64,000 bases of DNA. Origin: Escherichia coli O157:H7 (GTDB lineage Bacteria; Pseudomonadota; Gammaproteobacteria; Enterobacterales; Enterobacteriaceae). Made by a program: the position numbers and the translations under genes. The notes under the pieces are model-generated. The model was not told the origin of the DNA. It worked only from the letters and a program-made list of their open reading frames with translations, and did not search any database. Below, in pieces: positions 10,795 to 50,378 of this stretch; position 1 is the first letter of the stretch; every line of letters begins with the position of its first letter. The stretch is from NCBI RefSeq assembly GCF_013167455.1, contig NZ_CP038328.1; one strand, given 5' to 3'.

Positions 10795-10808
10795 TAAGAA
10801 ATATCGCA
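10795..10808 (+). promoter_or_regulatory. Candidate RcsAB box upstream of the colanic acid operon
   Basis: TAAGAAATATCGCA resembles the RcsAB-box consensus (TaAGaatatTCctA) in the long AT-rich leader upstream of wza. Confidence 0.3.
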
Positions 10809-11074
10809 TGTGGAGACGCAATATTAAATATTGTCAACCTAAAGAAACTCCTAAAAACCATATTGAATGACACTTAATATAATTCTTAAAAATAGCCAAT
10901 TGCCGAATTGTTACCTTGCCTGCTATTCCGTTAGCTGTAACACTTCCTCCTGCATTATTGGAGAGCCAATATTCAATTACCATAATGTCACCTTATATTC
11001 GGAAGTTAATTTCCGCAATAACCCTTTCTCATCAACGATTGTATGCAGAGAGGGTTTGAAAAATTAAGCTAAAT

Positions 11075-11113
11075 CAGTGTATTGGTAGCTAAAAAGCCAG
11101 GGGCGGTAGCGTG
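11075..11113 (+). promoter_or_regulatory. JUMPstart element with ops site (RfaH antitermination) in the wza leader
   Basis: CAGTGTATTGGTAGCTAAAAAGCCAGGGGCGGTAGCGTG; ops core GGCGGTAGCGTG at 11102-11113. Confidence 0.85.
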
Positions 11114-16468: not shown

Positions 16469-17682
16469 ATATTCTGCAATTTAATGTGCGACTGGCGGAA
16501 GGCGGGGCGGCAGGTGTGGCGTTAGATCTCCACCAGCGTGCGCTGCAACAGGGGCTGGCGTCACATTTTGTCTACGGCTACGGCAAAGGCGGCAAAGAGA
16601 GCGTCAGCCATCAGAACTATCCGCAGGTCATCAAACATACGCCGCGGATGACCGCAATGGCGAATATTGCCCTGTTTCGTCTGTTTAATCGCGATCTGTT
16701 TGGCAATTTCAATGAGTTATATCGCACCATTACTCGTACACCGGGTCCGGTGGTCCTGCATTTTCATGTGCTGCACAGCTACTGGCTAAATCTTAAGAGC
16801 GTGGTGCGCTTTTGCGAAAAGGTGAAAAACCACAAACCGGATGTCACTCTGGTCTGGACGCTGCACGACCACTGGAGCGTTACCGGGCGCTGCGCCTTTA
16901 CCGACGGTTGTGAAGGCTGGAAAACGGGCTGCCAGAAATGCCCGACCTTAAATAACTATCCGCCGGTGAAGATTGATCGGGCGCACCAGCTGGTGGCGGG
17001 CAAACGCCAGTTATTCCGTGAGATGCTGGCGCTGGGCTGTCAGTTTATTTCCCCCAGCCAGCATGTGGCTGACGCTTTCAATAGCCTGTACGGTCCAGGG
17101 CGTTGCCGGATTATCAATAACGGTATTGATATGGCAACCGAGGCGATTCTGGCGGATTTGCCTCCGGTGCGCGAAACTCAGGGCAAGCCGAAAATCGCGG
17201 TGGTAGCGCATGACCTGCGTTACGACGGCAAAACTAACCAGCAACTGGTACGCGAGATGATGGCGCTGGGCGACAAAATCGAACTGCATACCTTTGGTAA
17301 GTTCTCGCCGTTCACCGCTGGCAACGTGGTTAATCACGGCTTTGAAACTGACAAGCGCAAGTTGATGAGCGCGCTCAATCAGATGGATGCGCTGGTGTTC
17401 AGTTCTCGCGTCGATAACTACCCGCTGATTTTGTGTGAGGCGTTATCAATTGGCGTGCCGGTGATTGCCACCCATAGCGACGCGGCGCGTGAAGTGTTGC
17501 AAAAATCCGGCGGTAAAACCGTCAGCGAAGAAGAGGTGCTGCAACTGGTCCAGTTAAGCAAACCGGAAATCGCGCAGGCGTTATTTGGTACCACGCTGGC
17601 TGAGTTCAGCCAACGCAGCCGCGCCGCCTACAGTGGACAACAGATGCTGGAGGAGTATGTCAACTTCTATCAGAATCTGTAG
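16465..17682 (+). CDS. wcaC: Colanic acid glycosyltransferase (GT4)
   Basis: 405 aa; position in cluster. Confidence 0.85.
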   Translation: MNILQFNVRLAEGGAAGVALDLHQRALQQGLASHFVYGYGKGGKESVSHQNYPQVIKHTPRMTAMANIALFRLFNRDLFGNFNELYRTITRTPGPVVLHFHVLHSYWLNLKSVVRFCEKVKNHKPDVTLVWTLHDHWSVTGRCAFTDGCEGWKTGCQKCPTLNNYPPVKIDRAHQLVAGKRQLFREMLALGCQFISPSQHVADAFNSLYGPGRCRIINNGIDMATEAILADLPPVRETQGKPKIAVVAHDLRYDGKTNQQLVREMMALGDKIELHTFGKFSPFTAGNVVNHGFETDKRKLMSALNQMDALVFSSRVDNYPLILCEALSIGVPVIATHSDAAREVLQKSGGKTVSEEEVLQLVQLSKPEIAQALFGTTLAEFSQRSRAAYSGQQMLEEYVNFYQNL

Positions 17683-18874
17683 CTACCTGCTGCTGCCGCT
17701 GATCTACCTGCTGGTTAACGTCAAAATCACCCAGCTTGGCGAAAGTTTCCCCATCACCATCGTCACTTTTTTACCTGTCTTGTTACTGCTGTTTTTAGAA
17801 CGCATCAGCGTTAAAAAATTGATGATTGCCTTAGGGATTTGCGCGGGACTCACGGCGTTTAACTACCTGTTTGGTCAGTCGCTGGATGCCAGTAAATACG
17901 TCACTTCAACTATGCTGTTTGTCTATATCGTGATCATTATTGGTATGGTGTGGAGTATTCGCTTTAAAACGATTTCGCCACACAACCATCGCAAGATATT
18001 ACGTTTCTTTTATCTGGTGGTCGGGCTGGTGGTGGCGCTGGCGGCGGTGGAGATGGCGCAAATTATCCTCACCGGCGGCAGCAGTATTATGGAGTCGATT
18101 TCGAAATATCTGATTTACAGCAACAGCTATGTGCTGAATTTCATCAAATTCGGCGGCAAGCGCACGACAGCACTTTATTTCGAACCGGCATTTTTCGCTC
18201 TGGCATTAATCTCAATTTGGCTCAGCATCAAACAGTTTGGTATCAAAACGCCTAAAACAGATGCTATGATTCTCGCAGGGATAATATTATCCGGATCGTT
18301 TTCAGGGGTTATGACCTTTATCCTGTTTTATTTGCTGGAGTGGGCATTTCAATATCTGAATAAAGAGGCGATTAAGAAAAAGTTACCGTTAGCATTGATT
18401 TCTCTGGCAGTATTCCTGGTTGGTGTGGTAATTGCATTTCCTTATATTTCCACCCGTCTGGGCGATTTAGGTACGGAAGGATCGTCATCGTATTATCGTA
18501 TTGTCGGTCCGCTGGTGATGGTCGGTTATTCTTTGACCCATATTGACGGTGTAGTCAGATTTGGCTCACTTTATGAATATGTCGCATCATTCGGAATATT
18601 TAACGGTGCGGATGTCGGAAAAACCATAGACAATGGTTTGTATCTGCTGATTATTTATTTTTCTTGGTTCGCGGTGTTTTTATCGCTGTGGTACATGGGG
18701 AAAGTGATAAAAATGATGATCAACGCTTTTGGTGATAACCGCAATTTTCGCGTGCAATTATATCTTTTTACTCCGGTATCGCTGTTTTTTACCGGTTCGA
18801 TATTTAGCCCGGAATATGCATTTTTAATCGTCTGTCCGTTTATTTTGCGAAAAGCGTTAAATATTACGAGGTAA
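17657..18874 (+). CDS. wcaD: Putative colanic acid polymerase (multi-pass membrane protein)
   Basis: [26 protein letters not shown]...; highly hydrophobic; ATG at 17657 overlaps the wcaC 3' end. Confidence 0.85.
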
Positions 18875-18884
18875 GAATAAGAAC

Positions 18885-19631
18885 ATGTTGCTTAGCATAA
18901 TCACTGTCGCGTTTCGTAACCTCGAAGGGATAGTCAAAACACATGCCTCGCTGGCGCATCTGGCGCAGGCGGAAGATATCAGCTTCGAATGGATTGTTGT
19001 CGATGGCGGTTCCAATGACGGCACTCGTGAGTACCTGGAAAATCTCAATGGTATCTATAACCTACGCTTTGTCAGCGAGCCAGATAACGGTATCTACGAC
19101 GCCATGAACAAGGGCATTGCGATGGCACAAGGCAAGTTCGCGTTGTTTCTCAACTCGGGCGATATTTTTCATCAGGATGCCGCATATTTTGTCCGTAAGT
19201 TAAAAATGCAAAAAGATAACGTGATGATCACCGGCGATGCGCTGCTGGATTTTGGCGACGGGCATAAAATTAAACGTAGCGCCAAACCGGGCTGGTATAT
19301 TTATCACAGCCTGCCCGCCAGTCATCAGGCGATATTTTTCCCGGTATCCGGTTTGAAAAAATGGCGTTATGACCTGGAATATAAAGTTTCTTCTGATTAC
19401 GCGCTGGCAGCCAAAATGTATAAAGCAGGTTATGCATTTAAAAAACTCAATGGCCTGGTGTCTGAATTTTCTATGGGTGGGGTATCTACCACCAATAATA
19501 TGGAATTGTGTGCTGACGCGAAAAAAGTCCAACGGCAAATATTACATGTGCCTGGCTTTTGGGCTGAATTATCCTGGCATTTACGCCAGCGTACTACCTC
19601 AAAGACGAAAGCCTTATATAACAAAAGCTGA
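18885..19631 (+). CDS. wcaE: Colanic acid glycosyltransferase (GT2)
   Basis: 248 aa; position in cluster. Confidence 0.85.
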
Positions 19632-19646
19632 ATATAAGGGAAAACG

Positions 19647-20195
19647 ATGCAGGATTTAAGCGGTTTCTCGGTGCCGAAAGGGTTCCGGGGCGGCAACGCT
19701 ATTAAAGTGCAATTGTGGTGGGCAGTACAGGCAACAATATTTGCCTGGTCGCCACAAGTATTGTATCGCTGGCGGGCATTTTTATTACGTTTATTCGGCG
19801 CAAAAATAGGAAAAAACGTAGTTATTCGTCCGTCAGTAAAAATTACCTATCCGTGGAAATTAACCTTAGGTGATTACGTGTGGGTCGGCGATGACGTCAA
19901 TTTATATACCCTCGGTGAAATAACCATTGGCGCACATTCGGTGATATCGCAAAAAAGTTATTTATGCACCGGGAGCCACGACCATGCAAGTCAACATTTC
20001 ACCATTAACGCCACGCCTATTGTGATTGGCGAGAAATGCTGGCTGGCAACCGATGTTTTTGTTGCCCCAGGCGTCACGATTGGCGACGGCACCGTCGTGG
20101 GTGCGCGAAGCAGTGTTTTTAAATCGCTTCCGGCAAATGTGGTTTGCCGGGGGAATCCCGCAGTGGTGATACGCAAACGCGTTGAAACTGAATAA
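19647..20195 (+). CDS. wcaF: Colanic acid acetyltransferase (hexapeptide repeat)
   Basis: 182 aa, hexapeptide repeats; position. Confidence 0.85.
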   Translation: MQDLSGFSVPKGFRGGNAIKVQLWWAVQATIFAWSPQVLYRWRAFLLRLFGAKIGKNVVIRPSVKITYPWKLTLGDYVWVGDDVNLYTLGEITIGAHSVISQKSYLCTGSHDHASQHFTINATPIVIGEKCWLATDVFVAPGVTIGDGTVVGARSSVFKSLPANVVCRGNPAVVIRKRVETE

Positions 20196-20223: not shown

Positions 20224-21345
20224 ATGTCAAAAGTCGCTCTCATCACCGGTGTAACCGGACAAGACGGTTCTTACCTGGCAGAGTTTCTGCTGGAAAAAGG
20301 TTACGAGGTGCATGGTATTAAGCGTCGCGCATCGTCATTCAACACCGAGCGCGTGGATCACATTTATCAGGATCCGCACACCTGCAACCCGAAATTCCAT
20401 CTGCATTATGGCGACCTGAGTGATACCTCCAACCTGACGCGTATTTTGCGTGAAGTGCAGCCGGATGAAGTGTACAACCTGGGCGCAATGAGCCACGTTG
20501 CGGTTTCTTTTGAGTCACCGGAATATACCGCTGACGTCGACGCGATGGGTACGCTGCGCCTGCTGGAGGCGATCCGCTTCCTCGGTCTGGAAAAGAAAAC
20601 CCGTTTCTATCAGGCTTCCACCTCTGAACTGTATGGTCTGGTGCAGGAAATTCCGCAGAAAGAGACCACGCCGTTCTATCCGCGCTCTCCGTATGCGGTC
20701 GCCAAACTGTATGCCTACTGGATCACCGTCAACTACCGTGAATCCTACGGCATGTATGCCTGTAACGGTATTCTCTTCAACCATGAATCCCCGCGCCGCG
20801 GCGAAACCTTCGTTACCCGCAAAATCACCCGCGCAATCGCCAACATCGCCCAGGGGCTGGAGTCGTGCCTGTACCTCGGCAATATGGATTCCCTGCGTGA
20901 CTGGGGCCATGCCAAAGACTACGTAAAAATGCAGTGGATGATGCTGCAACAGGAACAGCCAGAAGATTTCGTTATCGCGACCGGCGTTCAGTACTCCGTA
21001 CGTCAGTTCGTAGAAATGGCGGCAGCACAGCTGGGCATCAAACTGCGCTTTGAAGGCACGGGCGTTGAAGAGAAGGGCATTGTGGTTTCCGTCACCGGGC
21101 ATGACGCGCCGGGTGTTAAACCGGGTGATGTGATTATCGCCGTTGATCCGCGTTACTTCCGTCCGGCTGAAGTTGAAACGCTGCTCGGCGACCCGACCAA
21201 AGCGCACGAAAAACTGGGCTGGAAACCGGAAATCACCCTCAGAGAGATGGTGTCTGAAATGGTGGCTAATGACCTCGAAGCGGCGAAAAAACACTCTCTG
21301 CTGAAATCTCACGGCTACGACGTGGCGATCGCGCTGGAGTCATAA
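20224..21345 (+). CDS. gmd: GDP-mannose 4,6-dehydratase (colanic acid copy)
   Basis: [50 protein letters not shown]... Confidence 0.95.
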
Positions 21346-21347
21346 GT

Positions 21348-22313
21348 ATGAGTAGACAACGCATTTTTATTGCTGGCCATCGCGGGATGGTCGGTTCCGC
21401 CATCAGGCGGCAGCTCGAACAGCGCGGTGATGTGGAACTGGTATTACGCACCCGCGACGAGCTGAACCTGCTGGACAGCCGCGCCGTGCATGATTTCTTT
21501 GCCAGCGAACGTATTGACCAGGTCTATCTGGCGGCCGCGAAAGTGGGCGGCATTGTTGCCAACAACACGTATCCGGCGGATTTCATCTATCAGAACATGA
21601 TGATTGAGAGCAACATCATTCACGCCGCGCATCAGAACGACGTGAACAAACTGCTGTTTCTCGGATCGTCCTGCATCTACCCGAAACTGGCAAAACAGCC
21701 GATGGCAGAAAGCGAGTTATTGCAGGGCACGCTGGAGCCGACCAACGAGCCTTACGCCATTGCCAAAATCGCCGGGATCAAACTGTGCGAATCATACAAC
21801 CGCCAGTACGGACGCGATTACCGCTCAGTCATGCCGACCAACCTGTATGGCCCGCATGACAACTTCCACCCGAGTAATTCGCATGTGATCCCTGCATTGC
21901 TGCGTCGCTTCCACGAGGCGACGGCACAGAATGCACCGGACGTGGTGGTGTGGGGCAGCGGTACGCCGATGCGAGAATTTCTGCACGTCGATGATATGGC
22001 GGCGGCGAGCATTCATGTCATGGAGCTGGCGCATGAAGTCTGGCTGGAGAACACCCAGCCGATGCTGTCGCACATTAACGTCGGCACGGGCGTTGACTGC
22101 ACTATCCGCGAGCTGGCGCAAACCATCGCCAAAGTGGTGGGTTACAAAGGTCGGGTGGTTTTTGATGCCAGCAAACCGGATGGTACGCCGCGCAAACTGC
22201 TGGATGTGACGCGCCTGCATCAGCTTGGCTGGTATCACGAAATCTCACTGGAAGCGGGGCTTGCCAGCACTTACCAGTGGTTCCTTGAGAATCAAGACCG
22301 CTTTCGGGGGTAA
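21348..22313 (+). CDS. fcl: GDP-L-fucose synthase (colanic acid copy)
   Basis: [44 protein letters not shown]... Confidence 0.95.
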
Positions 22314-22315
22314 TG

Positions 22316-22795
22316 ATGTTTTTACGTCAGGAAGACTTTGCCACGGTAGTGCGCTCCACACCGCTTGTCTCTCTCGACTTTATTGTCGAGAACAGTCGCG
22401 GCGAGTTTCTGCTTGGCAAAAGAACCAACCGCCCGGCGCAGGGTTACTGGTTTGTGCCGGGAGGGCGCGTGCAGAAAGACGAAACGCTGGAAGCCGCATT
22501 TGAGCGGCTGACGATGGCGGAACTGGGGCTGCGTCTGCCGATAACAGCAGGCCAGTTTTACGGTGTCTGGCAGCACTTTTATGACGATAACTTCTCCGGC
22601 ACGGATTTCACCACTCACTATGTGGTGCTCGGTTTTCGCTTCAGAGTAGCGGAAGAAGAACTGTTACTGCCGGATGAGCAGCATGACGATTACCGCTGGC
22701 TGACGCCGGACGCGCTGCTCGCCAGTAACGATGTTCACGCTAACAGCCGCGCCTATTTTCTCGCTGAGAAGCGTGCCGGAGTACCCGGATTATGA
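22316..22795 (+). CDS. gmm: GDP-mannose mannosyl hydrolase (Nudix)
   Basis: [50 protein letters not shown]...; start may be the adjacent ATG at 22313. Confidence 0.9.
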
Positions 22796-24015
22796 AAATA
22801 CTGGTCTACGGCATTAACTACTCGCCGGAGTTAACCGGCATCGGCAAATACACCGGCGAGATGGTGGAATGGCTGGCGGCGCAAGGTCATGAGGTGCGGG
22901 TTATTACCGCACCGCCTTACTACCCGCAGTGGCAAGTGGGCGAGAACTATTCCGCCTGGCGGTACAAACGAGAAGAGGGGGCCGCTACGGTGTGGCGCTG
23001 CCCGCTGTACGTGCCAAAACAGCCGAGCACCCTGAAACGCCTGTTGCATCTCGGCAGTTTTGCCGTCAGCAGTTTTTTCCCGTTGATGGCGCAACGTCGC
23101 TGGAAGCCGGATCGCATTATCGGCGTAGTGCCAACGCTGTTTTGCACGCCGGGAATGCGCCTGCTGGCGAAACTCTCTGGCGCGCGTACCGTGCTGCATA
23201 TTCAGGATTACGAAGTAGATGCCATGCTGGGGCTGGGCCTTGCCGGAAAAGGCAAAGGCGGCAAAGTGGCACAGCTGGCAACGGCGTTCGAACGTAGCGG
23301 ACTGCATAACGTCGATAACGTTTCCACGATTTCGCGTTCGATGATGAATAAAGCCATCGAAAAAGGCGTGGCGGCGGAAAACGTCATCTTCTTCCCCAAC
23401 TGGTCGGAAATCGCCCGTTTTCAGCATGTTGCAGACGCCGATGTTGATGCCCTTCGTAACCAGCTTGGCCTGCCGGATAACAAAAAAATCATTCTTTACT
23501 CCGGCAATATTGGTGAAAAGCAGGGGCTGGAAAACGTTATTGAAGCAGCCGATCGCCTGCGCGATGAACCGCTGATTTTTGCCATTGTCGGGCAGGGCGG
23601 CGGCAAAGCGCGGCTGGAAAAAATGGCGCAGCAGCGTGGACTGCGCAACATGCAATTTTTCCCGCTGCAATCGTATGACGCTTTACCCGCACTGCTGAAG
23701 ATGGGCGATTGCCATCTGGTGGTGCAAAAACGCGGCGCGGCAGATGCCGTATTGCCGTCGAAACTGACCAATATTCTGGCAGTAGGCGGTAACTCGGTGA
23801 TTACTGCTGAAGCCCACACAGAACTGGGACAGCTTTGCGAAACCTTTCCGGGCATTGCGGTTTGCGTAGAACCGGAATCGGTTGAGGCGCTGGTGGCGGG
23901 GATTCGTCAGGCGCTCCTGCTGCCCAAACACAACACGGTGGCACGTGAATATGCCGAACGCACGCTCGATAAAGAGAACGTGTTACGTCAATTTATAAAT
24001 GATATTCGGGGATAA
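22792..24015 (+). CDS. wcaI: Colanic acid glycosyltransferase (GT4)
   Basis: 407 aa; position in cluster. Confidence 0.85.
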
Positions 24016-24017
24016 TT

Positions 24018-25454
24018 ATGGCGCAGTCGAAACTCTATCCAGTTGTGATGGCAGGTGGCTCCGGTAGCCGCTTATGGCCGCTTTCCCGCGTACTTTATCC
24101 CAAGCAGTTTTTATGCCTGAAAGGCGATCTCACCATGCTGCAAACCACCATCTGCCGCCTGAACGGCGTGGAGTGCGAAAGCCCTGTGGTGATTTGCAAT
24201 GAGCAGCACCGCTTTATTGTTGCGGAACAACTGCGTCAACTGAACAAACTCACTGAGAACATTATTCTCGAACCGGCAGGGCGTAACACAGCACCGGCCA
24301 TTGCGCTGGCGGCGCTGGCGGCAAAACGTCATAGCCCGGAGAACGACCCATTAATGCTGGTGCTGGCGGCGGATCATGTGATTGCCGATGAAGACGCATT
24401 CCGCGCCGCCGTGCGTAACGCTATGCCGTATGCCGAAGCGGGCAAGCTGGTGACCTTCGGCATTGTGCCGGATCTACCTGAAACCGGATATGGCTATATT
24501 CGTCGCGGTGAAGTGTCGGCGGGTGAGCAGGATACGGTGGCCTTTGAAGTGGCGCAGTTTGTCGAAAAACCAAATCTGGAAACCGCGCAGGCCTATGTGG
24601 CAAGCGGCGAATATTACTGGAACAGCGGTATGTTCCTGTTCCGTGCCGGACGCTATCTCGAAGAACTGAAAAAATATCGCCCGGATATTCTCGACGCCTG
24701 TGAAAAAGCGATGAGCGCCGTCGATCCGGATCTCGATTTTATTCGCGTGGATGAAGACGCGTTTCTGGCCTGCCCGGAAGAGTCGGTGGATTACGCGGTC
24801 ATGGAACGTACGGCAGATGCCGTTGTGGTGCCGATGGATGCGGGCTGGAGCGATGTCGGCTCCTGGTCCTCATTATGGGAGATCAGCGCCCACACCGCCG
24901 AGGGCAACGTTTGCCACGGCGATGTGATTAATCACAAAACTGAAAACAGCTATGTGTATGCCGAATCTGGCCTGGTCACCACCGTCGGGGTGAAAGATTT
25001 GGTGGTAGTGCAGACCAAAGATGCGGTGCTGATTGCCGACCGTAACGCGGTGCAGGATGTGAAAAAAGTGGTCGAGCAGATCAAAGCCGATGGTCGCCAT
25101 GAGCATCGGGTGCATCGCGAAGTCTATCGCCCGTGGGGCAAATATGACTCTATCGACGCGGGCGACCGCTACCAGGTGAAACGCATCACCGTGAAACCGG
25201 GCGAAGGCTTGTCGGTACAGATGCACCATCACCGCGCGGAACACTGGGTGGTTGTCGCGGGAACGGCAAAAGTCACCATTGACGGTGATATCAAACTGCT
25301 TGGTGAAAACGAGTCGATTTATATTCCGCTGGGGGCGACGCACTGCCTGGAAAACCCGGGGAAAATTCCGCTCGATTTAATTGAAGTGCGCTCCGGCTCT
25401 TATCTCGAAGAGGATGATGTGGTGCGCTTCGCGGATCGCTACGGACGGGTGTAA
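24018..25454 (+). CDS. cpsB: Mannose-1-phosphate guanylyltransferase (colanic acid copy)
   Basis: 478 aa [24 protein letters not shown]...; cupin-type C-terminal domain. Confidence 0.93.
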
Positions 25455-25598
<144 letters not shown>

Positions 25599-25646
25599 TT
25601 GGCCGTTTCGGTCAGGGCCAACTATTGCCTGAAAAAGGGTAACGAT

Positions 25647-27017
25647 ATGAAAAAATTAACCTGCTTTAAAGCCTATGATATTCGCGGGAAATTAGGCGAA
25701 GAACTGAATGAAGATATTGCCTGGCGCATTGGTCGTGCCTATGGCGAATTTCTCAAACCGAAAACCATTGTGTTAGGCGGTGATGCCCGTCTCACCAGCG
25801 AAACCTTAAAACTGGCGCTGGCAAAAGGTTTACAGGATGCGGGCGTTGACGTGCTGGATATTGGTATGTCCGGCACCGAAGAGATCTATTTCGCCACGTT
25901 CCATCTCGGCGTGGATGGCGGCATTGAAGTTACTGCCAGCCATAACCCGATGGATTACAACGGCATGAAACTGGTGCGCGAAGGGGCTCGCCCGATCAGC
26001 GGCGATACCGGACTGCGCGATGTCCAGCGTCTGGCAGAAGCCAACGACTTTCCTCCCGTTGATGAAACCAAACGCGGTCGCTATCAGCAAATCAATCTGC
26101 GTGACGCTTACGTTGATCACCTGTTCGGTTATATCAACGTCAAAAACCTTACGCCGCTCAAGCTGGTGATCAACTCCGGGAACGGCGCGGCGGGTCCGGT
26201 GGTGGACGCCATCGAAGCCCGCTTTAAAGCCCTCGGCGCACCGGTGGAATTGATCAAAGTGCACAACACGCCCGACGGCAATTTCCCCAACGGTATTCCT
26301 AACCCGCTGCTGCCGGAATGTCGCGACGACACCCGCAATGCGGTCATTAAACACGGCGCGGATATGGGCATTGCTTTTGATGGCGATTTTGACCGCTGTT
26401 TCCTGTTTGACGAAAAAGGGCAGTTTATCGAGGGCTACTACATTGTCGGTCTGCTGGCAGAAGCGTTCCTCGAAAAAAATCCCGGCGCGAAGATCATCCA
26501 CGATCCACGTCTCTCCTGGAATACCGTTGATGTGGTGACTGCCGCAGGCGGCACCCCGGTAATGTCGAAAACCGGACACGCCTTTATTAAAGAACGGATG
26601 CGCAAGGAAGACGCCATCTACGGTGGCGAAATGAGCGCCCACCATTACTTCCGTGATTTTGCTTACTGCGACAGCGGCATGATCCCGTGGCTGCTGGTCG
26701 CCGAACTGGTGTGCCTGAAAGGAAAGACGCTGGGCGAACTGGTGCGCGACCGGATGGCAGCGTTTCCGTCAAGCGGTGAGATCAACAGCAAACTGGCGCA
26801 ACCCGTTGAGGCGATTAACCGCGTGGAACAGCATTTTAGCCGTGAGGCGCTGGCGGTGGATCGCACCGATGGCATCAGCATGACCTTTGCCGACTGGCGC
26901 TTTAATCTGCGCTCCTCCAACACCGAACCGGTGGTGCGGTTGAATGTGGAATCACGCGGTGATGTGCCGCTGATGGAAGCGCGAACGCGAACTCTGCTGA
27001 CGTTGCTGAACGAGTAA
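25647..27017 (+). CDS. cpsG: Phosphomannomutase (colanic acid copy)
   Basis: [29 protein letters not shown]...; phosphohexomutase active site TASHNP. Confidence 0.93.
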
Positions 27018-29946: not shown

Positions 29947-29949
29947 GTT

Positions 29950-30110
29950 GTTGTTTTCGGTTCCGACAACGGTTGCCGGGTGCAGCGTAAAACACCTTAT
30001 CCATCCTACGGTTCTGTGCTCGGGTCTTGTAGGCCTGATAAGACGCGCCAGCGTCGCATCAGGCAAAAAACGGCAACGAACACAACAAACACAGCCTCAC
30101 CTGGCATCAA
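29950..30110. repeat. REP/BIME cluster between wzxC and wcaK
   Basis: Repeated ...CCTTATCCATCCTACGG...GTAGGCCTGATAAGACGCGCCAGCGTCGCATCAGGC... units. Confidence 0.7.
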
Positions 30111-30125
30111 ATTTATGAGGAAAAA

Positions 30126-36317: not shown

Positions 36318-36543
36318 TGAAAATCTGACCGAATGTAACGGTTGATAAGGAAATAATATCGGCAGTGAAAAACTATAGATCAATAAATATCACTGCTGTT
36401 GAGCTTTTATAATTAACTATGCTACCAATGAATAAATCGTGTGCAGATATGTATTTTTTGTTTGGTAGTCTTGTTTCTCCCTCTGAATAATAAGATAATA
36501 AACGCTTGGAGATGATTTTTTTAACATGGATTATCATTTCGTA

Positions 36544-36577
36544 CACTGGTAGCGATTAAGCCAGGGGCGGTAGCGTG
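36544..36577 (+). promoter_or_regulatory. JUMPstart/ops element of the O-antigen operon
   Basis: CACTGGTAGCGATTAAGCCAGGGGCGGTAGCGTG; ops core GGCGGTAGCGTG at 36566-36577, about 60 bp upstream of the first O-antigen gene. Confidence 0.85.
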
Positions 36578-36635: not shown

Positions 36636-37418
36636 ATGAACAAAGAAACCGTTTCAATAATTATGCCCGTTTACAATGGGGCCAAAACTATAATCTCATC
36701 AGTAGAATCAATTATACATCAATCTTATCAAGATTTTGTTTTGTATATCATTGACGATTGTAGCACCGATGATACATTTTCATTAATCAACAGTCGATAC
36801 AAAAACAATCAGAAAATAAGAATATTGCGTAACAAGACAAATTTAGGTGTTGCAGAAAGTCGAAATTATGGAATAGAAATGGCCACGGGGAAATATATTT
36901 CTTTTTGTGATGCGGATGATTTGTGGCACGAGAAAAAATTAGAGCGTCAAATCGAAGTGTTAAATAATGAATGTGTAGATGTGGTATGTTCTAATTATTA
37001 TGTTATAGATAACAAAAGAAATATTGTTGGCGAAGTTAATGCTCCTCATGTGATAAATTATAGAAAAATGCTCATGAAAAACTACATAGGGAATTTGACA
37101 GGAATCTATAATGCCAACAAATTGGGTAAGTTTTATCAAAAAAAGATTGGTCACGAGGATTATTTGATGTGGCTGGAAATAATTAATAAAACAAATGGTG
37201 CTATTTGTATTCAAGATAATCTGGCGTATTACATGCGTTCAAATAATTCACTATCGGGTAATAAAATTAAAGCTGCAAAATGGACATGGAGTATATATAG
37301 AGAACATTTACATTTGTCCTTTCCAAAAACATTATATTATTTTTTATTATATGCTTCAAATGGAGTCATGAAAAAAATAACACATTCACTATTAAGGAGA
37401 AAGGAGACTAAAAAGTGA
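36636..37418 (+). CDS. wbdN: O-antigen glycosyltransferase (GT2)
   Basis: 260 aa; GT2 signature (VSIIMPVYNG, DDCSTD, DADD); AT-rich codon usage; first gene after galF in the O157-type order. Confidence 0.8.
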   Translation: MNKETVSIIMPVYNGAKTIISSVESIIHQSYQDFVLYIIDDCSTDDTFSLINSRYKNNQKIRILRNKTNLGVAESRNYGIEMATGKYISFCDADDLWHEKKLERQIEVLNNECVDVVCSNYYVIDNKRNIVGEVNAPHVINYRKMLMKNYIGNLTGIYNANKLGKFYQKKIGHEDYLMWLEIINKTNGAICIQDNLAYYMRSNNSLSGNKIKAAKWTWSIYREHLHLSFPKTLYYFLLYASNGVMKKITHSLLRRKETKK

Positions 37419-40692: not shown

Positions 40693-40694
40693 AA

Positions 40695-41789
40695 ATGAAA
40701 TATATACCAGTTTACCAACCGTCATTGACAGGAAAAGAAAAAGAATATGTAAATGAATGTCTGGACTCAACGTGGATTTCATCAAAAGGAAACTATATTC
40801 AGAAGTTTGAAAATAAATTTGCGGAACAAAACCATGTGCAATATGCAACTACTGTAAGTAATGGAACGGTTGCTCTTCATTTAGCTTTGTTAGCGTTAGG
40901 TATATCGGAAGGAGATGAAGTTATTGTTCCAACACTGACATATATAGCATCAGTTAATGCTATAAAATACACAGGAGCCACCCCCATTTTCGTTGATTCA
41001 GATAATGAAACTTGGCAAATGTCTGTTAGTGACATAGAACAAAAAATCACTAATAAAACTAAAGCTATTATGTGTGTCCATTTATACGGACATCCATGTG
41101 ATATGGAACAAATTGTAGAACTGGCCAAAAGTAGAAATTTGTTTGTAATTGAAGATTGCGCTGAAGCCTTTGGTTCTAAATATAAAGGTAAATATGTGGG
41201 AACATTTGGAGATATTTCTACTTTTAGCTTTTTTGGAAATAAAACTATTACTACAGGTGAAGGTGGAATGGTTGTCACGAATGACAAAACACTTTATGAC
41301 CGTTGTTTACATTTTAAAGGCCAAGGATTAGCTGTACATAGGCAATATTGGCATGACGTTATAGGCTACAATTATAGGATGACAAATATCTGCGCTGCTA
41401 TAGGATTAGCCCAGTTAGAACAAGCTGATGATTTTATATCACGAAAACGTGAAATTGCTGATATTTATAAAAAAAATATCAACAGTCTTGTACAAGTCCA
41501 CAAGGAAAGTAAAGATGTTTTTCACACTTATTGGATGGTCTCAATTCTAACTAGGACCGCAGAGGAAAGAGAGGAATTAAGGAATCACCTTGCAGATAAA
41601 CTCATCGAAACAAGGCCAGTTTTTTACCCTGTCCACACGATGCCAATGTACTCGGAAAAATATCAAAAGCACCCTATAGCTGAGGATCTTGGTTGGCGTG
41701 GAATTAATTTACCTAGTTTCCCCAGCCTATCGAATGAGCAAGTTATTTATATTTGTGAATCTATTAACGAATTTTATAGTGATAAATAG
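40695..41789 (+). CDS. per: GDP-perosamine synthase (PLP-dependent DegT/DnrJ/EryC1-family aminotransferase)
   Basis: MKYIPVYQPSLTGKEKEYVNECLDSTWISSKGNYIQKFEN...; aminotransferase fold; the classical O157 rfbE marker position. Confidence 0.88.
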   Translation: MKYIPVYQPSLTGKEKEYVNECLDSTWISSKGNYIQKFENKFAEQNHVQYATTVSNGTVALHLALLALGISEGDEVIVPTLTYIASVNAIKYTGATPIFVDSDNETWQMSVSDIEQKITNKTKAIMCVHLYGHPCDMEQIVELAKSRNLFVIEDCAEAFGSKYKGKYVGTFGDISTFSFFGNKTITTGEGGMVVTNDKTLYDRCLHFKGQGLAVHRQYWHDVIGYNYRMTNICAAIGLAQLEQADDFISRKREIADIYKKNINSLVQVHKESKDVFHTYWMVSILTRTAEEREELRNHLADKLIETRPVFYPVHTMPMYSEKYQKHPIAEDLGWRGINLPSFPSLSNEQVIYICESINEFYSDK

Positions 41790-41813
41790 CCTAAAATATT
41801 GTAAAGGTCATTC

Positions 41814-43028: not shown

Positions 43029-43047
43029 TATATTCAAGAGGTATATA

Positions 43048-44166
43048 ATGACTAAAGTCGCTCTTATTACAGGTGTAACTGGACAAGATGGATCTTATCT
43101 AGCTGAGTTTTTGCTTGATAAAGGGTATGAAGTTCATGGTATCAAACGCCGAGCCTCATCTTTTAATACAGAACGCATAGACCATATTTATCAAGATCCA
43201 CATGGTTCTAACCCAAATTTTCACTTGCACTATGGAGATCTGACTGATTCATCTAACCTCACTAGAATTCTAAAGGAGGTACAGCCAGATGAAGTATATA
43301 ATTTAGCTGCTATGAGTCACGTAGCAGTTTCTTTTGAGTCTCCAGAATATACAGCCGATGTCGATGCAATTGGTACATTACGTTTACTGGAAGCAATTCG
43401 CTTTTTAGGATTGGAAAACAAAACGCGTTTCTATCAAGCTTCAACCTCAGAATTATATGGACTTGTTCAGGAAATCCCTCAAAAAGAATCCACCCCTTTT
43501 TATCCTCGTTCCCCTTATGCAGTTGCAAAACTTTACGCATATTGGATCACGGTAAATTATCGAGAGTCATATGGTATTTATGCATGTAATGGTATATTGT
43601 TCAATCATGAATCTCCACGCCGTGGAGAAACGTTTGTAACAAGGAAAATTACTCGAGGACTTGCAAATATTGCACAAGGCTTGGAATCATGTTTGTATTT
43701 AGGGAATATGGATTCGTTACGAGATTGGGGACATGCAAAAGATTATGTTAGAATGCAATGGTTGATGTTACAACAGGAGCAACCCGAAGATTTTGTGATT
43801 GCAACAGGAGTCCAATACTCAGTCCGTCAGTTTGTCGAAATGGCAGCAGCACAACTTGGTATTAAGATGAGCTTTGTTGGTAAAGGAATCGAAGAAAAAG
43901 GCATTGTAGATTCGGTTGAAGGACAGGATGCTCCAGGTGTGAAACCAGGTGATGTCATTGTTGCTGTTGATCCTCGTTATTTCCGACCAGCTGAAGTTGA
44001 TACTTTGCTTGGAGATCCGAGCAAAGCTAATCTCAAACTTGGTTGGAGACCAGAAATTACTCTTGCTGAAATGATTTCTGAAATGGTTGCCAAAGATCTT
44101 GAAGCCGCTAAAAAACATTCTCTTTTAAAATCGCATGGTTTTTCTGTAAGCTTAGCTCTGGAATGA
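43048..44166 (+). CDS. gmd: GDP-mannose 4,6-dehydratase (O-antigen copy)
   Basis: [50 protein letters not shown]...; protein highly similar to the colanic acid Gmd, but the DNA is AT-rich and diverged. Confidence 0.93.
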
Positions 44167-45134
44167 TGATGAATAAGCAACGTATTTTTATTGCTGGTCA
44201 CCAAGGAATGGTTGGATCAGCTATTACCCGACGCCTCAAACAACGTGATGATGTTGAGTTGGTTTTACGTACTCGGGATGAATTGAACTTGTTGGATAGT
44301 AGCGCTGTTTTGGATTTTTTTTCTTCACAGAAAATCGACCAGGTTTATTTGGCAGCAGCAAAAGTCGGAGGTATTTTAGCTAACAGTTCTTATCCTGCCG
44401 ATTTTATATATGAGAATATAATGATAGAGGCGAATGTCATTCATGCTGCCCACAAAAATAATGTAAATAAACTGCTTTTCCTCGGTTCGTCGTGTATTTA
44501 TCCTAAGTTAGCACACCAACCGATTATGGAAGACGAATTATTACAAGGGAAACTTGAGCCAACAAATGAACCTTATGCTATCGCAAAAATTGCAGGTATT
44601 AAATTATGTGAATCTTATAACCGTCAGTTTGGGCGTGATTACCGTTCAGTAATGCCAACCAATCTTTATGGTCCAAATGACAATTTTCATCCAAGTAATT
44701 CTCATGTGATTCCGGCGCTTTTGCGCCGCTTTCATGATGCTGTGGAAAACAATTCTCCGAATGTTGTTGTTTGGGGAAGTGGTACTCCAAAGCGTGAATT
44801 CTTACATGTAGATGATATGGCTTCTGCAAGCATTTATGTCATGGAGATGCCATACGATATATGGCAAAAAAATACTAAAGTAATGTTGTCTCATATCAAT
44901 ATTGGAACAGGTATTGACTGCACGATTTGTGAGCTTGCGGAAACAATAGCAAAAGTTGTAGGTTATAAAGGGCATATTACGTTCGATACAACAAAGCCCG
45001 ATGGAGCCCCTCGAAAACTACTTGATGTAACGCTTCTTCATCAACTAGGTTGGAATCATAAAATTACCCTTCACAAGGGTCTTGAAAATACATACAACTG
45101 GTTTCTTGAAAACCAACTTCAATATCGGGGGTAA
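44163..45134 (+). CDS. fcl: GDP-L-fucose synthase-like reductase (O-antigen copy)
   Basis: 323 aa [46 protein letters not shown]... Confidence 0.9.
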
Positions 45135-45136
45135 TA

Positions 45137-45646
45137 ATGTTTTTACATTCCCAAGACTTTGCCACAATTGTAAGGTCTACTCCTCTTATTTCTATAGATT
45201 TGATTGTGGAAAACGAGTTTGGCGAAATTTTGCTAGGAAAACGAATCAACCGCCCGGCACAGGGCTATTGGTTCGTTCCTGGTGGTAGGGTGTTGAAAGA
45301 TGAAAAATTGCAGACAGCCTTTGAACGATTGACAGAAATTGAACTAGGAATTCGTTTGCCTCTCTCTGTGGGTAAGTTTTATGGTATCTGGCAGCACTTC
45401 TACGAAGACAATAGTATGGGGGGAGACTTTTCAACGCATTATATAGTTATAGCATTCCTTCTTAAATTACAACCAAACATTTTGAAATTACCGAAGTCAC
45501 AACATAATGCTTATTGCTGGCTATCGCGAGCAAAGCTGATAAATGATGACGATGTGCATTATAATTGTCGCGCATATTTTAACAATAAAACAAATGATGC
45601 GATTGGCTTAGATAATAAGGATATAATATGTCTGATGCGCCAATAA
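45137..45646 (+). CDS. wbdQ: GDP-mannose mannosyl hydrolase (Nudix; O-antigen copy)
   Basis: 169 aa [50 protein letters not shown]... Confidence 0.88.
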
Positions 45647-47076
45647 TTGCTGTAGTTATGGCCGGTGGTACAGGCAGTCGTCTTTGGCCACTTTCTCGTG
45701 AACTATATCCAAAGCAGTTTTTACAACTCTCTGGTGATAACACCTTGTTACAAACGACTTTGCTACGACTTTCAGGCCTATCATGTCAAAAACCATTAGT
45801 GATAACAAATGAACAGCATCGCTTTGTTGTGGCTGAACAGTTAAGGGAAATAAATAAATTAAATGGTAATATTATTCTAGAACCATGCGGGCGAAATACT
45901 GCACCAGCAATAGCGATATCTGCGTTTCATGCGTTAAAACGTAATCCTCAGGAAGATCCATTGCTTCTAGTTCTTGCGGCAGACCACGTTATAGCTAAAG
46001 AAAGTGTTTTCTGTGATGCTATTAAAAATGCAACTCCCATCGCTAATCAAGGTAAAATTGTAACGTTTGGAATTATACCAGAATATGCTGAAACTGGTTA
46101 TGGGTATATTGAGAGAGGTGAACTATCTGTACCGCTTCAAGGGCATGAAAATACTGGTTTTTATTATGTAAATAAGTTTGTCGAAAAGCCTAATCGTGAA
46201 ACCGCAGAATTGTATATGACTTCTGGTAATCACTATTGGAATAGTGGAATATTCATGTTTAAGGCATCTGTTTATCTTGAGGAATTGAGAAAATTTAGAC
46301 CTGACATTTACAATGTTTGTGAACAGGTTGCCTCATCCTCATACATTGATCTAGATTTTATTCGATTATCAAAAGAACAATTTCAAGATTGTCCTGCTGA
46401 ATCTATTGATTTTGCTGTAATGGAAAAAACAGAAAAATGTGTTGTATGCCCTGTTGATATTGGTTGGAGTGACGTTGGATCTTGGCAATCGTTATGGGAC
46501 ATTAGTCTAAAATCGAAAACAGGAGATGTATGTAAAGGTGATATATTAACCTATGATACTAAGAATAATTATATCTACTCTGAGTCAGCGTTGGTAGCCG
46601 CCATTGGAATTGAAGATATGGTTATCGTGCAAACTAAAGATGCCGTTCTTGTGTCTAAAAAGAGTGATGTACAGCATGTAAAAAAAATAGTCGAAATGCT
46701 TAAATTGCAGCAACGTACAGAGTATATTAGTCATCGTGAAGTTTTCCGACCATGGGGAAAATTTGATTCGATTGACCAAGGTGAGCGATACAAAGTCAAG
46801 AAAATTATTGTGAAACCTGGTGAGGGGCTTTCTTTAAGGATGCATCACCATCGTTCTGAACATTGGATCGTGCTTTCTGGTACAGCAAAAGTAACCCTTG
46901 GCGATAAAACTAAACTAGTCACCGCAAATGAATCGATATACATTCCCCTTGGCGCAGCGTATAGTCTTGAGAATCCGGGCATAATCCCTCTTAATCTTAT
47001 TGAAGTCAGTTCAGGGGATTATTTGGGAGAGGATGATATTATAAGACAGAAAGAACGTTACAAACATGAAGATTAA
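45628..47076 (+). CDS. manC: Mannose-1-phosphate guanylyltransferase (O-antigen copy)
   Basis: 482 aa [24 protein letters not shown]...; AT-rich DNA unlike cpsB. Confidence 0.92.
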
Positions 47077-47079
47077 CAT

Positions 47080-48450
47080 ATGAAATCTTTAACCTGCTTT
47101 AAAGCCTATGATATTCGCGGGAAATTAGGCGAAGAACTGAATGAAGATATTGCCTGGCGCATTGGGCGTGCCTATGGCGAATTTCTCAAACCGAAAACCA
47201 TTGTTTTAGGCGGTGATGTCCGCCTCACCAGCGAAGCGTTAAAACTGGCGCTTGCGAAAGGTTTACAGGATGCGGGCGTCGATGTGCTGGATATCGGTAT
47301 GTCCGGCACCGAAGAGATCTATTTCGCCACGTTCCATCTCGGAGTGGATGGCGGCATCGAAGTTACCGCCAGCCATAACCCGATGGATTACAACGGCATG
47401 AAGCTGGTGCGCGAAGGGGCTCGCCCGATCAGCGGTGATACCGGACTGCGCGATGTCCAGCGTCTGGCAGAAGCCAATGACTTCCCTCCTGTCGATGAAA
47501 CCAAACGTGGTCGCTATCAGCAAATCAATCTGCGTGACGCTTACGTTGATCACCTGTTCGGTTATATCAACGTCAAAAACCTCACGCCGCTCAAGCTGGT
47601 GATCAACTCCGGGAACGGCGCAGCGGGTCCGGTGGTGGACGCCATTGAAGCCCGATTTAAAGCCCTCGGCGCACCGGTGGAATTAATCAAAGTACACAAC
47701 ACGCCGGACGGCAATTTCCCCAACGGTATTCCTAACCCGCTGCTGCCGGAATGCCGCGACGACACCCGTAATGCGGTCATCAAACACGGCGCGGATATGG
47801 GCATTGCCTTTGATGGCGATTTTGACCGCTGTTTCCTGTTTGACGAAAAAGGGCAGTTTATCGAGGGCTACTACATTGTCGGCCTGCTGGCAGAAGCGTT
47901 CCTCGAAAAAAATCCCGGCGCGAAGATCATCCACGATCCACGTCTCTCCTGGAACACCGTTGATGTGGTGACTGCCGCAGGCGGCACCCCGGTAATGTCG
48001 AAAACCGGACACGCCTTTATTAAAGAACGTATGCGCAAGGAAGACGCCATCTACGGTGGCGAAATGAGCGCTCACCATTACTTCCGTGATTTCGCTTACT
48101 GCGACAGCGGCATGATCCCGTGGCTGCTGGTCGCCGAACTGGTGTGCCTGAAAGGAAAAACGCTGGGCGAAATGGTGCGCGACCGGATGGCGGCGTTTCC
48201 GGCAAGCGGTGAGATCAACAGCAAACTGGCGCAACCCGTTGAGGCAATTAATCGCGTGGAACAGCATTTTAGCCGCGAGGCGCTGGCGGTGGATCGCACC
48301 GATGGCATCAGCATGACCTTTGCCGACTGGCGCTTTAACCTGCGCTCCTCCAACACCGAACCGGTGGTGCGGTTGAATGTGGAATCACGCGGTGATGTAA
48401 AGCTAATGGAAAAGAAAACTAAAGCTCTTCTTAAATTGCTAAGTGAGTGA
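47080..48450 (+). CDS. manB: Phosphomannomutase (O-antigen copy; near-identical to cpsG at DNA level except the extreme 5' and 3' ends)
   Basis: 456 aa [29 protein letters not shown]...; high-GC body matching cpsG; the last ~20 codons are AT-rich and divergent (...[19 protein letters not shown]). Confidence 0.93.
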
Positions 48451-48689
48451 TTATTTACATTAATCATTAAGCGTATTTAAGATTATATTAAAGTAATGTT
48501 ATTGCGGTATATGATGAATATGTGGGCTTTTTTATGTATAACGACTATACCGCAACTTTATCTAGGAAAAGATTAATAGAAATAAAGTTTTGTACTGACC
48601 AATTTGCATTTCACGTCACGATTGAGACGTTCCTTTGCTTAAGACATTTTTTCATCGCTTATGTAATAACAAATGTGCCTTATATAAAA

Positions 48690-49650
48690 AGGAGAACAAA
48701 ATGGAACTTAAAATAATTGAGACAATAGATTTTTATTATCCCTGTTTACGATATTATAGCCAAAGTTGTATCCTGCATCAGTCCTGCAATATTTCACGAG
48801 TGCTTTGTTAACTGAATACATGTCTGCCATTTTCCAGATGATAACGACGTCATCGCAATTGATGGTAAAACACTTCGGCACACTTATGACAAGAGTCGTC
48901 GCAGAGGAGTGGTTCATGTCATTAGTGCGTTTCAGCAATGCACAGTCTGGTCCTCGGATAGATCAAGACGGATGAGAAACCTAATGCGTTCACAGTTATT
49001 CATGAACTTTCTAAAATGATGGGTATTAAAGGAAAAATAATCATAACTGATGCGATGGCTTGCCAGAAAGATATTGCAGAGAAGATATAAAAACAGAGAT
49101 GTGATTATTTATTCGCTGTAAAAGGAAATAAGAGTCGGCTTAATAGAGTCTTTGAGGAGATATTTACGCTGAAAGAATTAAATAATCCAAAACATGACAG
49201 TTACGCAATTAGTGAAAAGAGGCACGGCAGAGACGATGTCCGTCTTCATATTGTTTGAGATGCTCCTGATGAGCTTATTGATTTCACGTTTGAATGGAAA
49301 GGGCTGCAGAATTTATGAATGGCAGTCCACTTTCTCTCAATAATAGCAGAGCAAAAGAAAGAATCCGAAATGACGATCAAATATTATATTAGATCTGCTG
49401 CTTTAACCGCAGAGAAGTTCGCCACAGTAAATCGAAATCACTGGCGCATGGAGAATAAGTTGCACAGTAGCCTGATGTGGTAATGAATGAAATCGACTAT
49501 AATATAAGAAGGCGAGTTGCATTCGAATGATTTTCTAGAATGCGGCACATCGCTATTAATATCTGACAATGATAATGTATTCAAGGCAGGATTATCATGT
49601 AAGATGCGAAAAGCAGTCATGGACAGAAACTTCCTAGCGTCAGGCATTGC
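48690..49650 (+). mobile_element. Degenerate H-repeat (ISAs1-family) transposase remnant
   Basis: Frame-hopping translation gives MELK..., [155 protein letters not shown]-repeat-protein blocks interrupted by multiple stops and frameshifts. Confidence 0.8.
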
Positions 49651-49712
49651 AGCGTGCGGGCTTTCATAATCTTGCATTGGTTTTGATAAGATATTTCTTT
49701 GGAGATGGGAAA

Positions 49713-50378
49713 ATGAATTTGTATGGTATTTTTGGTGCTGGAAGTTATGGTAGAGAAACAATACCCATTCTAAATCAACAAATAAAGCAAGAATGTGGTT
49801 CTGACTATGCTCTGGTTTTTGTGGATGATGTTTTGGCAGGAAAGAAAGTTAATGGTTTTGAAGTGCTTTCAACCAACTGCTTTCTAAAAGCCCCTTATTT
49901 AAAAAAGTATTTTAATGTTGCTATTGCTAATGATAAGATACGACAGAGAGTGTCTGAGTCAATATTATTACACGGGGTTGAACCAATAACTATAAAACAT
50001 CCAAATAGCGTTGTTTATGATCATACTATGATAGGTAGTGGCGCTATTATTTCTCCCTTTGTTACAATATCTACTAATACTCATATAGGGAGGTTTTTTC
50101 ATGCAAACATATACTCATACGTTGCACATGATTGTCAAATAGGAGACTATGTTACATTTGCTCCTGGGGCTAAATGTAATGGATATGTTGTTATTGAAGA
50201 CAATGCATATATAGGCTCGGGTGCAGTAATTAAGCAGGGTGTTCCTAATCGCCCACTTATTATTGGCGCGGGAGCCATTATAGGTATGGGGGCTGTTGTC
50301 ACTAAAAGTGTTCCTGCCGGTATAACTGTGTGCGGAAATCCAGCAAGAGAAATGAAAAGATCGCCAACATCTATTTAA
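49713..50378 (+). CDS. wbdR: Hexapeptide-repeat acetyltransferase, probable GDP-perosamine N-acetyltransferase
   Basis: MNLYGIFGAGSYGRETIPIL...; C-terminal left-handed beta-helix repeats; last gene before gnd as in the O157 cluster. Confidence 0.8.
   Translation: MNLYGIFGAGSYGRETIPILNQQIKQECGSDYALVFVDDVLAGKKVNGFEVLSTNCFLKAPYLKKYFNVAIANDKIRQRVSESILLHGVEPITIKHPNSVVYDHTMIGSGAIISPFVTISTNTHIGRFFHANIYSYVAHDCQIGDYVTFAPGAKCNGYVVIEDNAYIGSGAVIKQGVPNRPLIIGAGAIIGMGAVVTKSVPAGITVCGNPAREMKRSPTSI

Follow-up and report, generated by a model that had tools for sequence, protein, structure and literature searches.

The O-antigen gene cluster of Escherichia coli O157 was reportedly set out by Wang and Reeves in 1998, and a duplicate mannose pathway in Salmonella enterica LT2, rfbM/rfbK versus cpsB/cpsG, is said to have been described by Stevenson et al. 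in 1991 and by Jensen and Reeves in 2001. In the Salmonella case the capsule and O-antigen operons each carry manC and manB; the manC genes have diverged deeply and the O-antigen copy is low in GC, and the manB pair is nearly identical, the O-antigen manB having been replaced by cpsG-type sequence. Here we examine a stretch of 64,000 nucleotides (the window) from E. coli O157:H7 (assembly GCF_013167455.1, contig NZ_CP038328.1) that holds both the colanic acid (CA) operon and the O157 O-antigen cluster, and compare the two sets of guanosine diphosphate (GDP)-sugar genes found in them: gmd-fcl-gmm-(wcaI)-cpsB-cpsG in the CA operon (the CA set) and gmd-fcl-wbdQ-manC-manB in the O157 cluster (the O set). 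In all likelihood the window carries two operons for two surface polysaccharides, each with its own pathway from mannose-6-phosphate to GDP-sugars, the O set having been imported and its manB converted. The O157 cassette differs from that of LT2 in that gmd, fcl and gmm are duplicated too, because the O157 unit contains fucose and perosamine.

Compared with the published O157 O-antigen cluster (Samuel 2004; Iguchi 2011, PMC3158064), the locus is the same and differs in nothing of substance. The CA operon is likewise identical in organisation to the E. coli K-12 colanic acid (wca/cps) cluster (Stevenson et al. 1996; Stout 1996), with which it shares native GC, an upstream JUMPStart element and the order wza-wzb-wzc-wcaA-F-gmd-fcl-gmm-wcaI-cpsB-cpsG-wcaJ-wzxC-wcaK-M, and of which it is only an allelic variant. 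In serogroup O14, according to the passage on Jensen & Reeves 2004 in PMC7685785, recombination between manB and cpsG deleted everything between these repeats; recombination has the same substrates in both cases, namely the direct repeats formed by cpsG and the O-cluster manB, but in O157 the outcome is a non-crossover conversion that leaves both operons intact. Duplicated GDP-sugar genes, their contrasting GC and a cpsG-derived manB have been known since the 1990s, and the finding reported here is real and ordinary.

All ten proteins of the two sets score above the curated NCBIfam cut-offs by which families were assigned (TIGR01472, NF047922, NF011963, TIGR01479/NF012004 and NF011943), and are so predicted to be Gmd, Fcl, GDP-mannose mannosyl hydrolase, ManC and phosphomannomutase (Table 1). 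An earlier note on this DNA had named both sets correctly, but had ended the CA set at 25454, which leaves cpsG (25647-27017) outside it. The contrast in composition claimed there is borne out by GC at third codon positions (GC3) and by codon adaptation, the two checks that it had proposed: the CA set has a GC of 0.54-0.57 and a GC3 of 0.62-0.69, and the four low-GC genes of the O set (gmd, fcl, wbdQ and manC) have a GC of 0.38-0.39 and a GC3 of 0.24-0.36, with GC1 and GC2 lowered as well. The codon-adaptation index, for which housekeeping genes within the window served as reference, is 0.64-0.76 in the CA set and 0.49-0.52 in the four low-GC O genes. The O-cluster manB is the sole exception (GC 0.54, GC3 0.62, index 0.72). 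Low GC extends over the whole O157 cluster (0.30-0.39), including wzx, wzy and the glycosyltransferases, which lack a CA partner.

The DNA of the pairs has diverged apart from manB, as had also been claimed: CA and O copies are 73.4% identical for gmd, 69.5% for fcl, 60.5% for gmm/wbdQ and 59.7% for cpsB/manC, against 95.1% for cpsG/manB. The accompanying statement that the proteins are highly similar applies to Gmd (89.5%), Fcl (78.8%) and ManB (97.4%), but not to Gmm and ManC, which reach just 61% (60.8% and 60.7%, respectively). Synonymous differences are saturated in the four diverged pairs (proportion of differing synonymous sites, pS, 0.87-0.94; nonsynonymous divergence, dN, 0.07-0.33), and the synonymous divergence (dS) of cpsG/manB is about 0.18; third-position identity is 89% in manB/cpsG versus 32-39% in the other four pairs. 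No hidden conversion tracts were found in the gmd, fcl, gmm and manC pairs, where the longest identical run is 14 nucleotides (nt) and third-position identity stays flat at 0.2-0.5.

Where the four low-GC genes came from was examined by a search for relatives among 5.8 billion proteins and by neighbour-joining trees with 200 bootstraps. Counterparts of the O-set ManC (O-ManC) at 77-83% identity occur in the O-antigen clusters of Salmonella enterica, of several Citrobacter species, of Xenorhabdus and of further E. coli serogroups; ManC of Pectobacterium, Kluyvera and E. albertii follows at 72-74%, and E. coli CpsB, that of this genome included, at only 61%. In the tree, O-type ManC forms one clade and CpsB another, each with 100% bootstrap support. 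For O-Fcl there is no relative at 80-99% identity among the matches listed, and those at 75-79% are all enterobacterial. In the tree, every enteric CA-type Fcl falls in one clade (100%), with O-Fcl as its sister (98%), branching off before Escherichia, Salmonella, Citrobacter, Yokenella and Atlantibacter separated. The Gmd tree is poorly resolved, with the O copy outside the CA group. Phylogenies of the pairs, a further check proposed with the earlier note, hence place O-ManC in an O-antigen clade and O-Fcl outside the enteric CA clade, and show that the O- and CA-type lineages separated before the enteric genera diverged. Because their synonymous sites are saturated and the paralogues are not each other's closest relatives in the trees, the four low-GC O genes are not recent, in-place duplicates of the CA genes.

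The earlier note had gone further, stating that the O copies were imported from a low-GC donor rather than duplicated in place. Saturation, identical runs of at most 14 nt and the trees uphold the second half of that statement, but no donor could be identified. A scan of one genome per species gave a best ManC match of 63% (Pantoea) among the matches listed, and the protein searches returned ManC relatives at no more than 83%, from enterobacterial O-antigen loci only, and no Fcl above 79% among the matches listed. Every O-set protein still has its nearest relatives among the enterobacteria; the closest all lie in other enterobacterial O-antigen loci, which are themselves low in GC. Import from a low-GC source is the standard reading (PMC3715488), and is consistent with the GC of the whole cluster. 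We propose that gmd, fcl, gmm and manC belong to an old low-GC cassette (gmd-fcl-gmm-manC-manB) circulating among the O-antigen clusters of the Enterobacterales, which came with the O157 cluster instead of being copied from the adjacent CA genes.

Alternatively, the low GC could have arisen in place, the O-set gmd, fcl and gmm descending from enterobacterial CA-type genes that turned AT-rich within the O-antigen cluster, where mutation would be AT-biased and codon selection weak. In favour of this, O-Fcl and O-Gmd have only enterobacterial, CA-type proteins as their nearest relatives, O-Fcl is sister to the enteric clade and not to any low-GC taxon, and no donor was found among the matches listed; moreover, related cassettes (see below) contain CA-like gmd, fcl and gmm genes (85-94% amino acid identity to the E. 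coli CA copies) of intermediate GC3 (0.43-0.59), and all cassettes taken together form a graded GC3 series from 0.24 to 0.71. We nevertheless judge this course improbable. Divergence is deep, with saturated synonymous sites and a dN of 0.07-0.33, and O-Fcl branches before the enteric genera split, which would put drift of this kind very far back in time. ManC, for its part, belongs to a separate, well-supported O-antigen clade and is not a derivative of CpsB. GC1 and GC2 are lowered along with GC3, and low GC is found cluster-wide, for which a common foreign ancestry is the simpler account, in agreement with PMC3715488.

The fifth gene of the O set, manB, is a gene-conversion chimera: a cpsG-type body set into the original O-cluster gene. 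When the two regions are aligned, identity climbs from about 40-50% to more than 90% at the manB start codon and drops again about 50 bases ahead of the stop, and the regions flanking manB and cpsG are unalignable. Codon 3 of manB differs wholly from that of cpsG (AAA versus TCT), and toward the other end there is a sharp change-point, with 3.4% mismatches over 1310 nt followed by 38% over 52 nt. These last 52 nt are AT-rich, 61.5% identical to cpsG and still homologous to it at the protein level at the C-terminus, and look like a remnant of the original gene. Composition changes along with identity: GC3 rises from 0.26 in manC to 0.62 in manB (0.64 in its body) and is back at 0.29 over the final 54 nt of the gene, and the last 81 nt have a GC of 0.38 versus 0.55 in the remainder of the gene. 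Sharply bounded synonymous near-identity, divergent flanks and donor-type composition, the marks of gene conversion, are thus found together in one gene, and we attribute the near-identity of manB and cpsG to homologous recombination with an E. coli-type cpsG that would have overwritten codons 4-440. Gene conversion by such a cpsG, in direct orientation about 21 kb upstream, would have replaced these codons and spared the O-cluster ribosome-binding region (which sits within the end of manC), codons 1-3 and the final 52 bases.

Replacement of the original manB by its colanic-acid equivalent has been published (Samuel 2004, as related in Iguchi 2011, PMC3158064), and Iguchi 2011 gives cpsG and manB as more than 95% identical and reports that, of the genes in O157 clusters, manB alone is variable, which it ascribes to conversion with cpsG. 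What is added here is the position of the tract ends to the base and the result that no sampled E. coli cpsG allele matches the tract at 99%. The earlier note had recognised manB as an exception, and the exception is real, but it was left unexplained there.

Two other explanations of the manB/cpsG likeness fall away on the same evidence. That the transfer ran in reverse, the resident cpsG being overwritten by the O-cluster manB, is scarcely credible: conversion between direct repeats can proceed either way, and manB alleles vary among O157 strains (Iguchi 2011, PMC3158064), but the sequence common to both genes is native E. coli DNA in its composition and matches cpsG from about 4,400 E. coli genomes of all serogroups at 95-97% identity, the AT-rich remnants lie at the ends of manB and not of cpsG, and cpsG retains its own upstream algC motif and repetitive extragenic palindromic (REP) context. 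Strong purifying selection or codon constraint on phosphomannomutase, without recombination, has virtually no chance of being the cause, for although ManB is a conserved enzyme with a low dN/dS among O157 strains (0.045; Iguchi 2011, PMC3158064), the synonymous-site pattern rules it out: protein-level selection can neither keep third positions 89% identical here against 32-39% in the other pairs nor make boundaries such as the GC3 jump from 0.26 to 0.62 and back to 0.29 with its sharp change-point.

Conversion as placed above also accounts for a difference between the two genes in their leaders. An algC RNA motif lies directly upstream of cpsG and ends 4 nt ahead of its start codon, with a small hairpin predicted to pair a Shine-Dalgarno-like AGGG. 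The O-cluster manB has no such upstream motif because the conversion tract starts at codon 4, and for the same reason the two genes share a coding body but not a translation-initiation region. The 206-nt cpsB-cpsG region folds far better than its shuffles (z = -4.3) and contains two REP-like palindromes, and further REP-like palindromes occur within the CA operon in the wzxC-wcaK gap (29947-30125). REPs in both gaps have been described as recombination junctions (Iguchi 2011, PMC3158064).

The persistence of two complete sets is conventionally explained by their expression. The CA operon needs activation by RcsAB and is normally off at 37 °C. In the literature, colanic acid synthesis is activated by RcsA/RcsB and additionally subject to antitermination through JUMPStart and RfaH, and RfaH is a regulator of lipopolysaccharide operons. 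The earlier note had opposed an Rcs- and RfaH-controlled capsule to a constitutive O-antigen. Its Rcs half agrees with the literature, but its RfaH half does not hold, as JUMPStart/ops elements front both operons (Table 1): the ops core GGCGGTAG lies in the coding-strand 5' leader of each, from which RfaH dependence is predicted for both, and it would therefore be Rcs dependence, not RfaH, that sets the operons apart. In each pathway ManB/CpsG would make mannose-1-phosphate from mannose-6-phosphate and ManC/CpsB would turn this into GDP-mannose; Gmd would then make GDP-4-keto-6-deoxymannose, which Fcl would convert to GDP-L-fucose, and Gmm, a NUDIX hydrolase, would act on GDP-mannose. The product of Gmd would have a second use in the O157 operon, its diversion by Per and PerB to GDP-N-acetylperosamine. 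The O-antigen operon would carry its own GDP-sugar supply because the CA set is normally silent while the O-antigen operon is expressed in ordinary growth; all five O-set proteins have been detected in a laboratory-culture proteome of O157:H7 (PMC3210124). Differential expression is thus a plausible reason, drawn from the literature, why both sets persist.

Several results weigh against this picture of two separately controlled pathways and a converted manB. No RcsAB box (consensus TAAGAATATTCCTA, at up to three mismatches) was found near wza, and the total number of sites was not above chance; scans of both operons for consensus promoters and terminators gave counts at or below those expected from shuffled sequence; and none of the locus tags taken for the CA set is among the entries listed in the O157:H7 proteome supplements (PMC3210124), which is weak evidence. 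As to manB, its tract matches the resident cpsG at 96.6%, no better than it does cpsG genes of unrelated E. coli (up to about 97-98%).

This last result also bears on when manB was converted. The tract is 95-97% identical to cpsG in about 4,400 of 5,426 complete E. coli genomes, and BLAST searches of these genomes with the whole gene and with each half returned no donor cpsG allele at 99% or more outside the O157 set, the best reaching about 97-98%. The donor was, by this comparison, an E. coli-type cpsG. Since the resident cpsG is no closer than unrelated alleles, the conversion was not a recent one in this genome, and may have happened in an earlier host, before the cluster reached the O157:H7 lineage. 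A recent conversion from the resident cpsG was considered and rejected on these same grounds. Roughly 305 of the 5,426 genomes contain the whole O157 cluster, and manB is present at 99% identity or more in only 295 of them, which fits the variable manB of Iguchi 2011 (PMC3158064). In about 740 of the 5,426 genomes there is no megablast match to manB/cpsG at all.

Cassettes of the same kind were found in O-antigen loci of other hosts. Four loci were fetched around relatives of ManC, from Salmonella, Citrobacter, Xenorhabdus and another E. coli serogroup, with the cassette at about positions 5400-10830 of each. The order gmd-fcl-gmm-manC-manB is identical in all four, manC is always low in GC (GC3 0.27-0.30), and every manB combines a high-GC body with an AT-rich tail that is unique and lies past a conserved RLNVESRG motif, the 5' junction falling at codons 2-4. 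The Salmonella cassette among them repeats the LT2 pattern (manC GC3 0.30, manB body 0.81, tail AT-rich). The gmd, fcl and gmm genes of the four cassettes are CA-like (GC3 0.43-0.71), and in the other E. coli serogroup Fcl matches the CA Fcl of O157 at 99.7% identity. CA-like gmd, fcl and gmm, together with the manB bodies, point to exchange of pathway genes between capsule and O-antigen loci as a recurrent event, and O157 is unusual only in its unconverted gmd, fcl and gmm. It is conceivable, though doubtful, that O157 alone has kept the gmd-fcl-gmm of an ancient low-GC GDP-fucose cassette in unconverted form. If that were so, the capsule genes of the host would keep overwriting the O-antigen pathway genes, manC would be an island proof against recombination, and the graded GC3 of the converted genes (0.43-0.71) could be used as a clock for the growth of AT-richness in O-antigen clusters. 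In the Salmonella locus the called fcl has just 237 residues and is perhaps a truncated gene.

The chimeric structure of manB has practical consequences. RefSeq, through its annotation pipeline PGAP, calls the O-antigen manB "cpsG: colanic acid biosynthesis phosphomannomutase CpsG". Because the body of manB is cpsG-derived, automated annotation gives it this name, which is a naming artefact, and the genome thus seems to carry two cpsG genes. The label can mislead pathway or serotype calls, and recombination with cpsG makes manB ill-suited as a marker of the O157 cluster. The direct repeats formed by the two genes, at a distance of 21 kb, are also known to allow deletion of the entire O-antigen region.

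Table 1. Positions of the two operons, their GDP-sugar genes, the parts of manB and associated elements in the window
Feature	Position	Strand	Evidence and remarks
gmd, CA copy (GDP-mannose 4,6-dehydratase)	20224..21345	+	annotation; TIGR01472 587 bits; GC3 0.636
fcl/wcaG, CA copy (GDP-L-fucose synthase)	21348..22313	+	annotation; NF047922 552 bits; GC3 0.693
gmm/wcaH, CA copy (GDP-mannose mannosyl hydrolase, NUDIX)	22316..22795	+	annotation; NF011963 325 bits; GC3 0.619
wcaI, colanic acid fucosyltransferase	22792..24015	+	annotation; splits the pathway genes; no partner in O set
cpsB/manC, CA copy (mannose-1-phosphate guanylyltransferase)	24018..25454	+	annotation; NF012004 1114 bits; GC3 0.624
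cpsG/manB, CA copy (phosphomannomutase)	25647..27017	+	annotation; NF011943 1055 bits; GC3 0.632
gmd, O-antigen copy	43048..44166	+	TIGR01472 588 bits; GC3 0.241
fcl, O-antigen copy	44169..45134	+	NF047922 539 bits; GC3 0.298
wbdQ/gmm, O-antigen copy	45137..45646	+	NF011963 277 bits; GC3 0.359
manC, O-antigen copy	45628..47076	+	TIGR01479 779 bits; GC3 0.257
manB, O-antigen copy, chimeric	47080..48450	+	NF011943 1051 bits; GC3 0.617
cpsG-derived conversion tract inside manB (gene positions 10-1319)	47089..48398	+	45/1310 mismatches, 96.6% identity to resident cpsG
AT-rich 3' end of manB, apparent native remnant of original O-cluster gene	48399..48450	+	20/52 mismatches versus cpsG
two REP-like palindromes, cpsB-cpsG gap	25475..25556 (25475-25509, 25521-25556)	.	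sequence and fold
algC RNA motif directly upstream of cpsG	25593..25642	+	Rfam RF02929, 78.2 bits versus gathering 33.8, E=1e-15
JUMPStart/ops upstream of wza (CA operon start)	11075..11113	+	Rfam RF01707 57.3 bits versus gathering 35; GGCGGTAG 11102-11109
JUMPStart/ops upstream of wbdN (O157 operon start)	36540..36577	+	RF01707 39.9 bits versus gathering 35; GGCGGTAG 36566-36573
CA operon, wza to wcaM	11292-34028		RefSeq annotation; followed by gne and galF
O157 O-antigen cluster	36636-50378		annotation; followed by gnd, ugd, wzzB, his operon
per/rfbE, GDP-perosamine synthase	40695..41789	+	annotation; second user of Gmd product in O-antigen operon
ISAs1 (H-repeat) transposase pseudogene, between manB and perB	48738..49669	+	RefSeq: frameshifted, internal stop, partial
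perB/wbdR, GDP-perosamine N-acetyltransferase	49713..50378	+	annotation; GC3 0.221; last O157 cluster gene

The identity of the locus and its layout are straightforward. A 15-kb query from the AT-rich region is 100% identical to many E. coli O157:H7 chromosomes, and gene coordinates, carried over to the window from the RefSeq annotation of strain PA20, agree with our own check of open reading frames. By this annotation the CA operon has all 20 genes in canonical order and lies upstream of galF. The O157 cluster, between galF and gnd, contains genes that RefSeq names "O157 family O-antigen flippase" and "O157 family O-antigen polymerase", together with rfbE/perA and perB, in the order wbdN-wzy-wbdO-wzx-per-wbdP-gmd-fcl-wbdQ-manC-manB-(H-repeat)-wbdR. 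The H-repeat, an ISAs1 pseudogene, is inside the cluster and directly downstream of the AT-rich end of manB.

Composition is uneven within the CA operon too. The genes wcaD, wcaE and wcaF (17657-20195) have a GC of 0.43-0.48 and a GC3 of about 0.5, versus 0.60-0.71 in the remaining operon, and the capsule operon is therefore itself a compositional mosaic; wcaM (GC 0.47) and gne (GC 0.455) are also low. Upstream, the window contains alkA, dgcE, udk, dcd, asmA, a relE/helix-turn-helix (HTH) gene pair and yegH, in this order. In the O157:H7 genome that matches the window, the annotation gives the diguanylate cyclase gene dgcE (1479-4797, minus strand) as a pseudogene with a frameshift. The RelE/ParE toxin and HTH antitoxin pair between asmA and yegH (8357-8975, minus strand), with a GC of 0.42-0.44 and a GC3 of 0.36-0.38, therefore looks like a small inserted islet.

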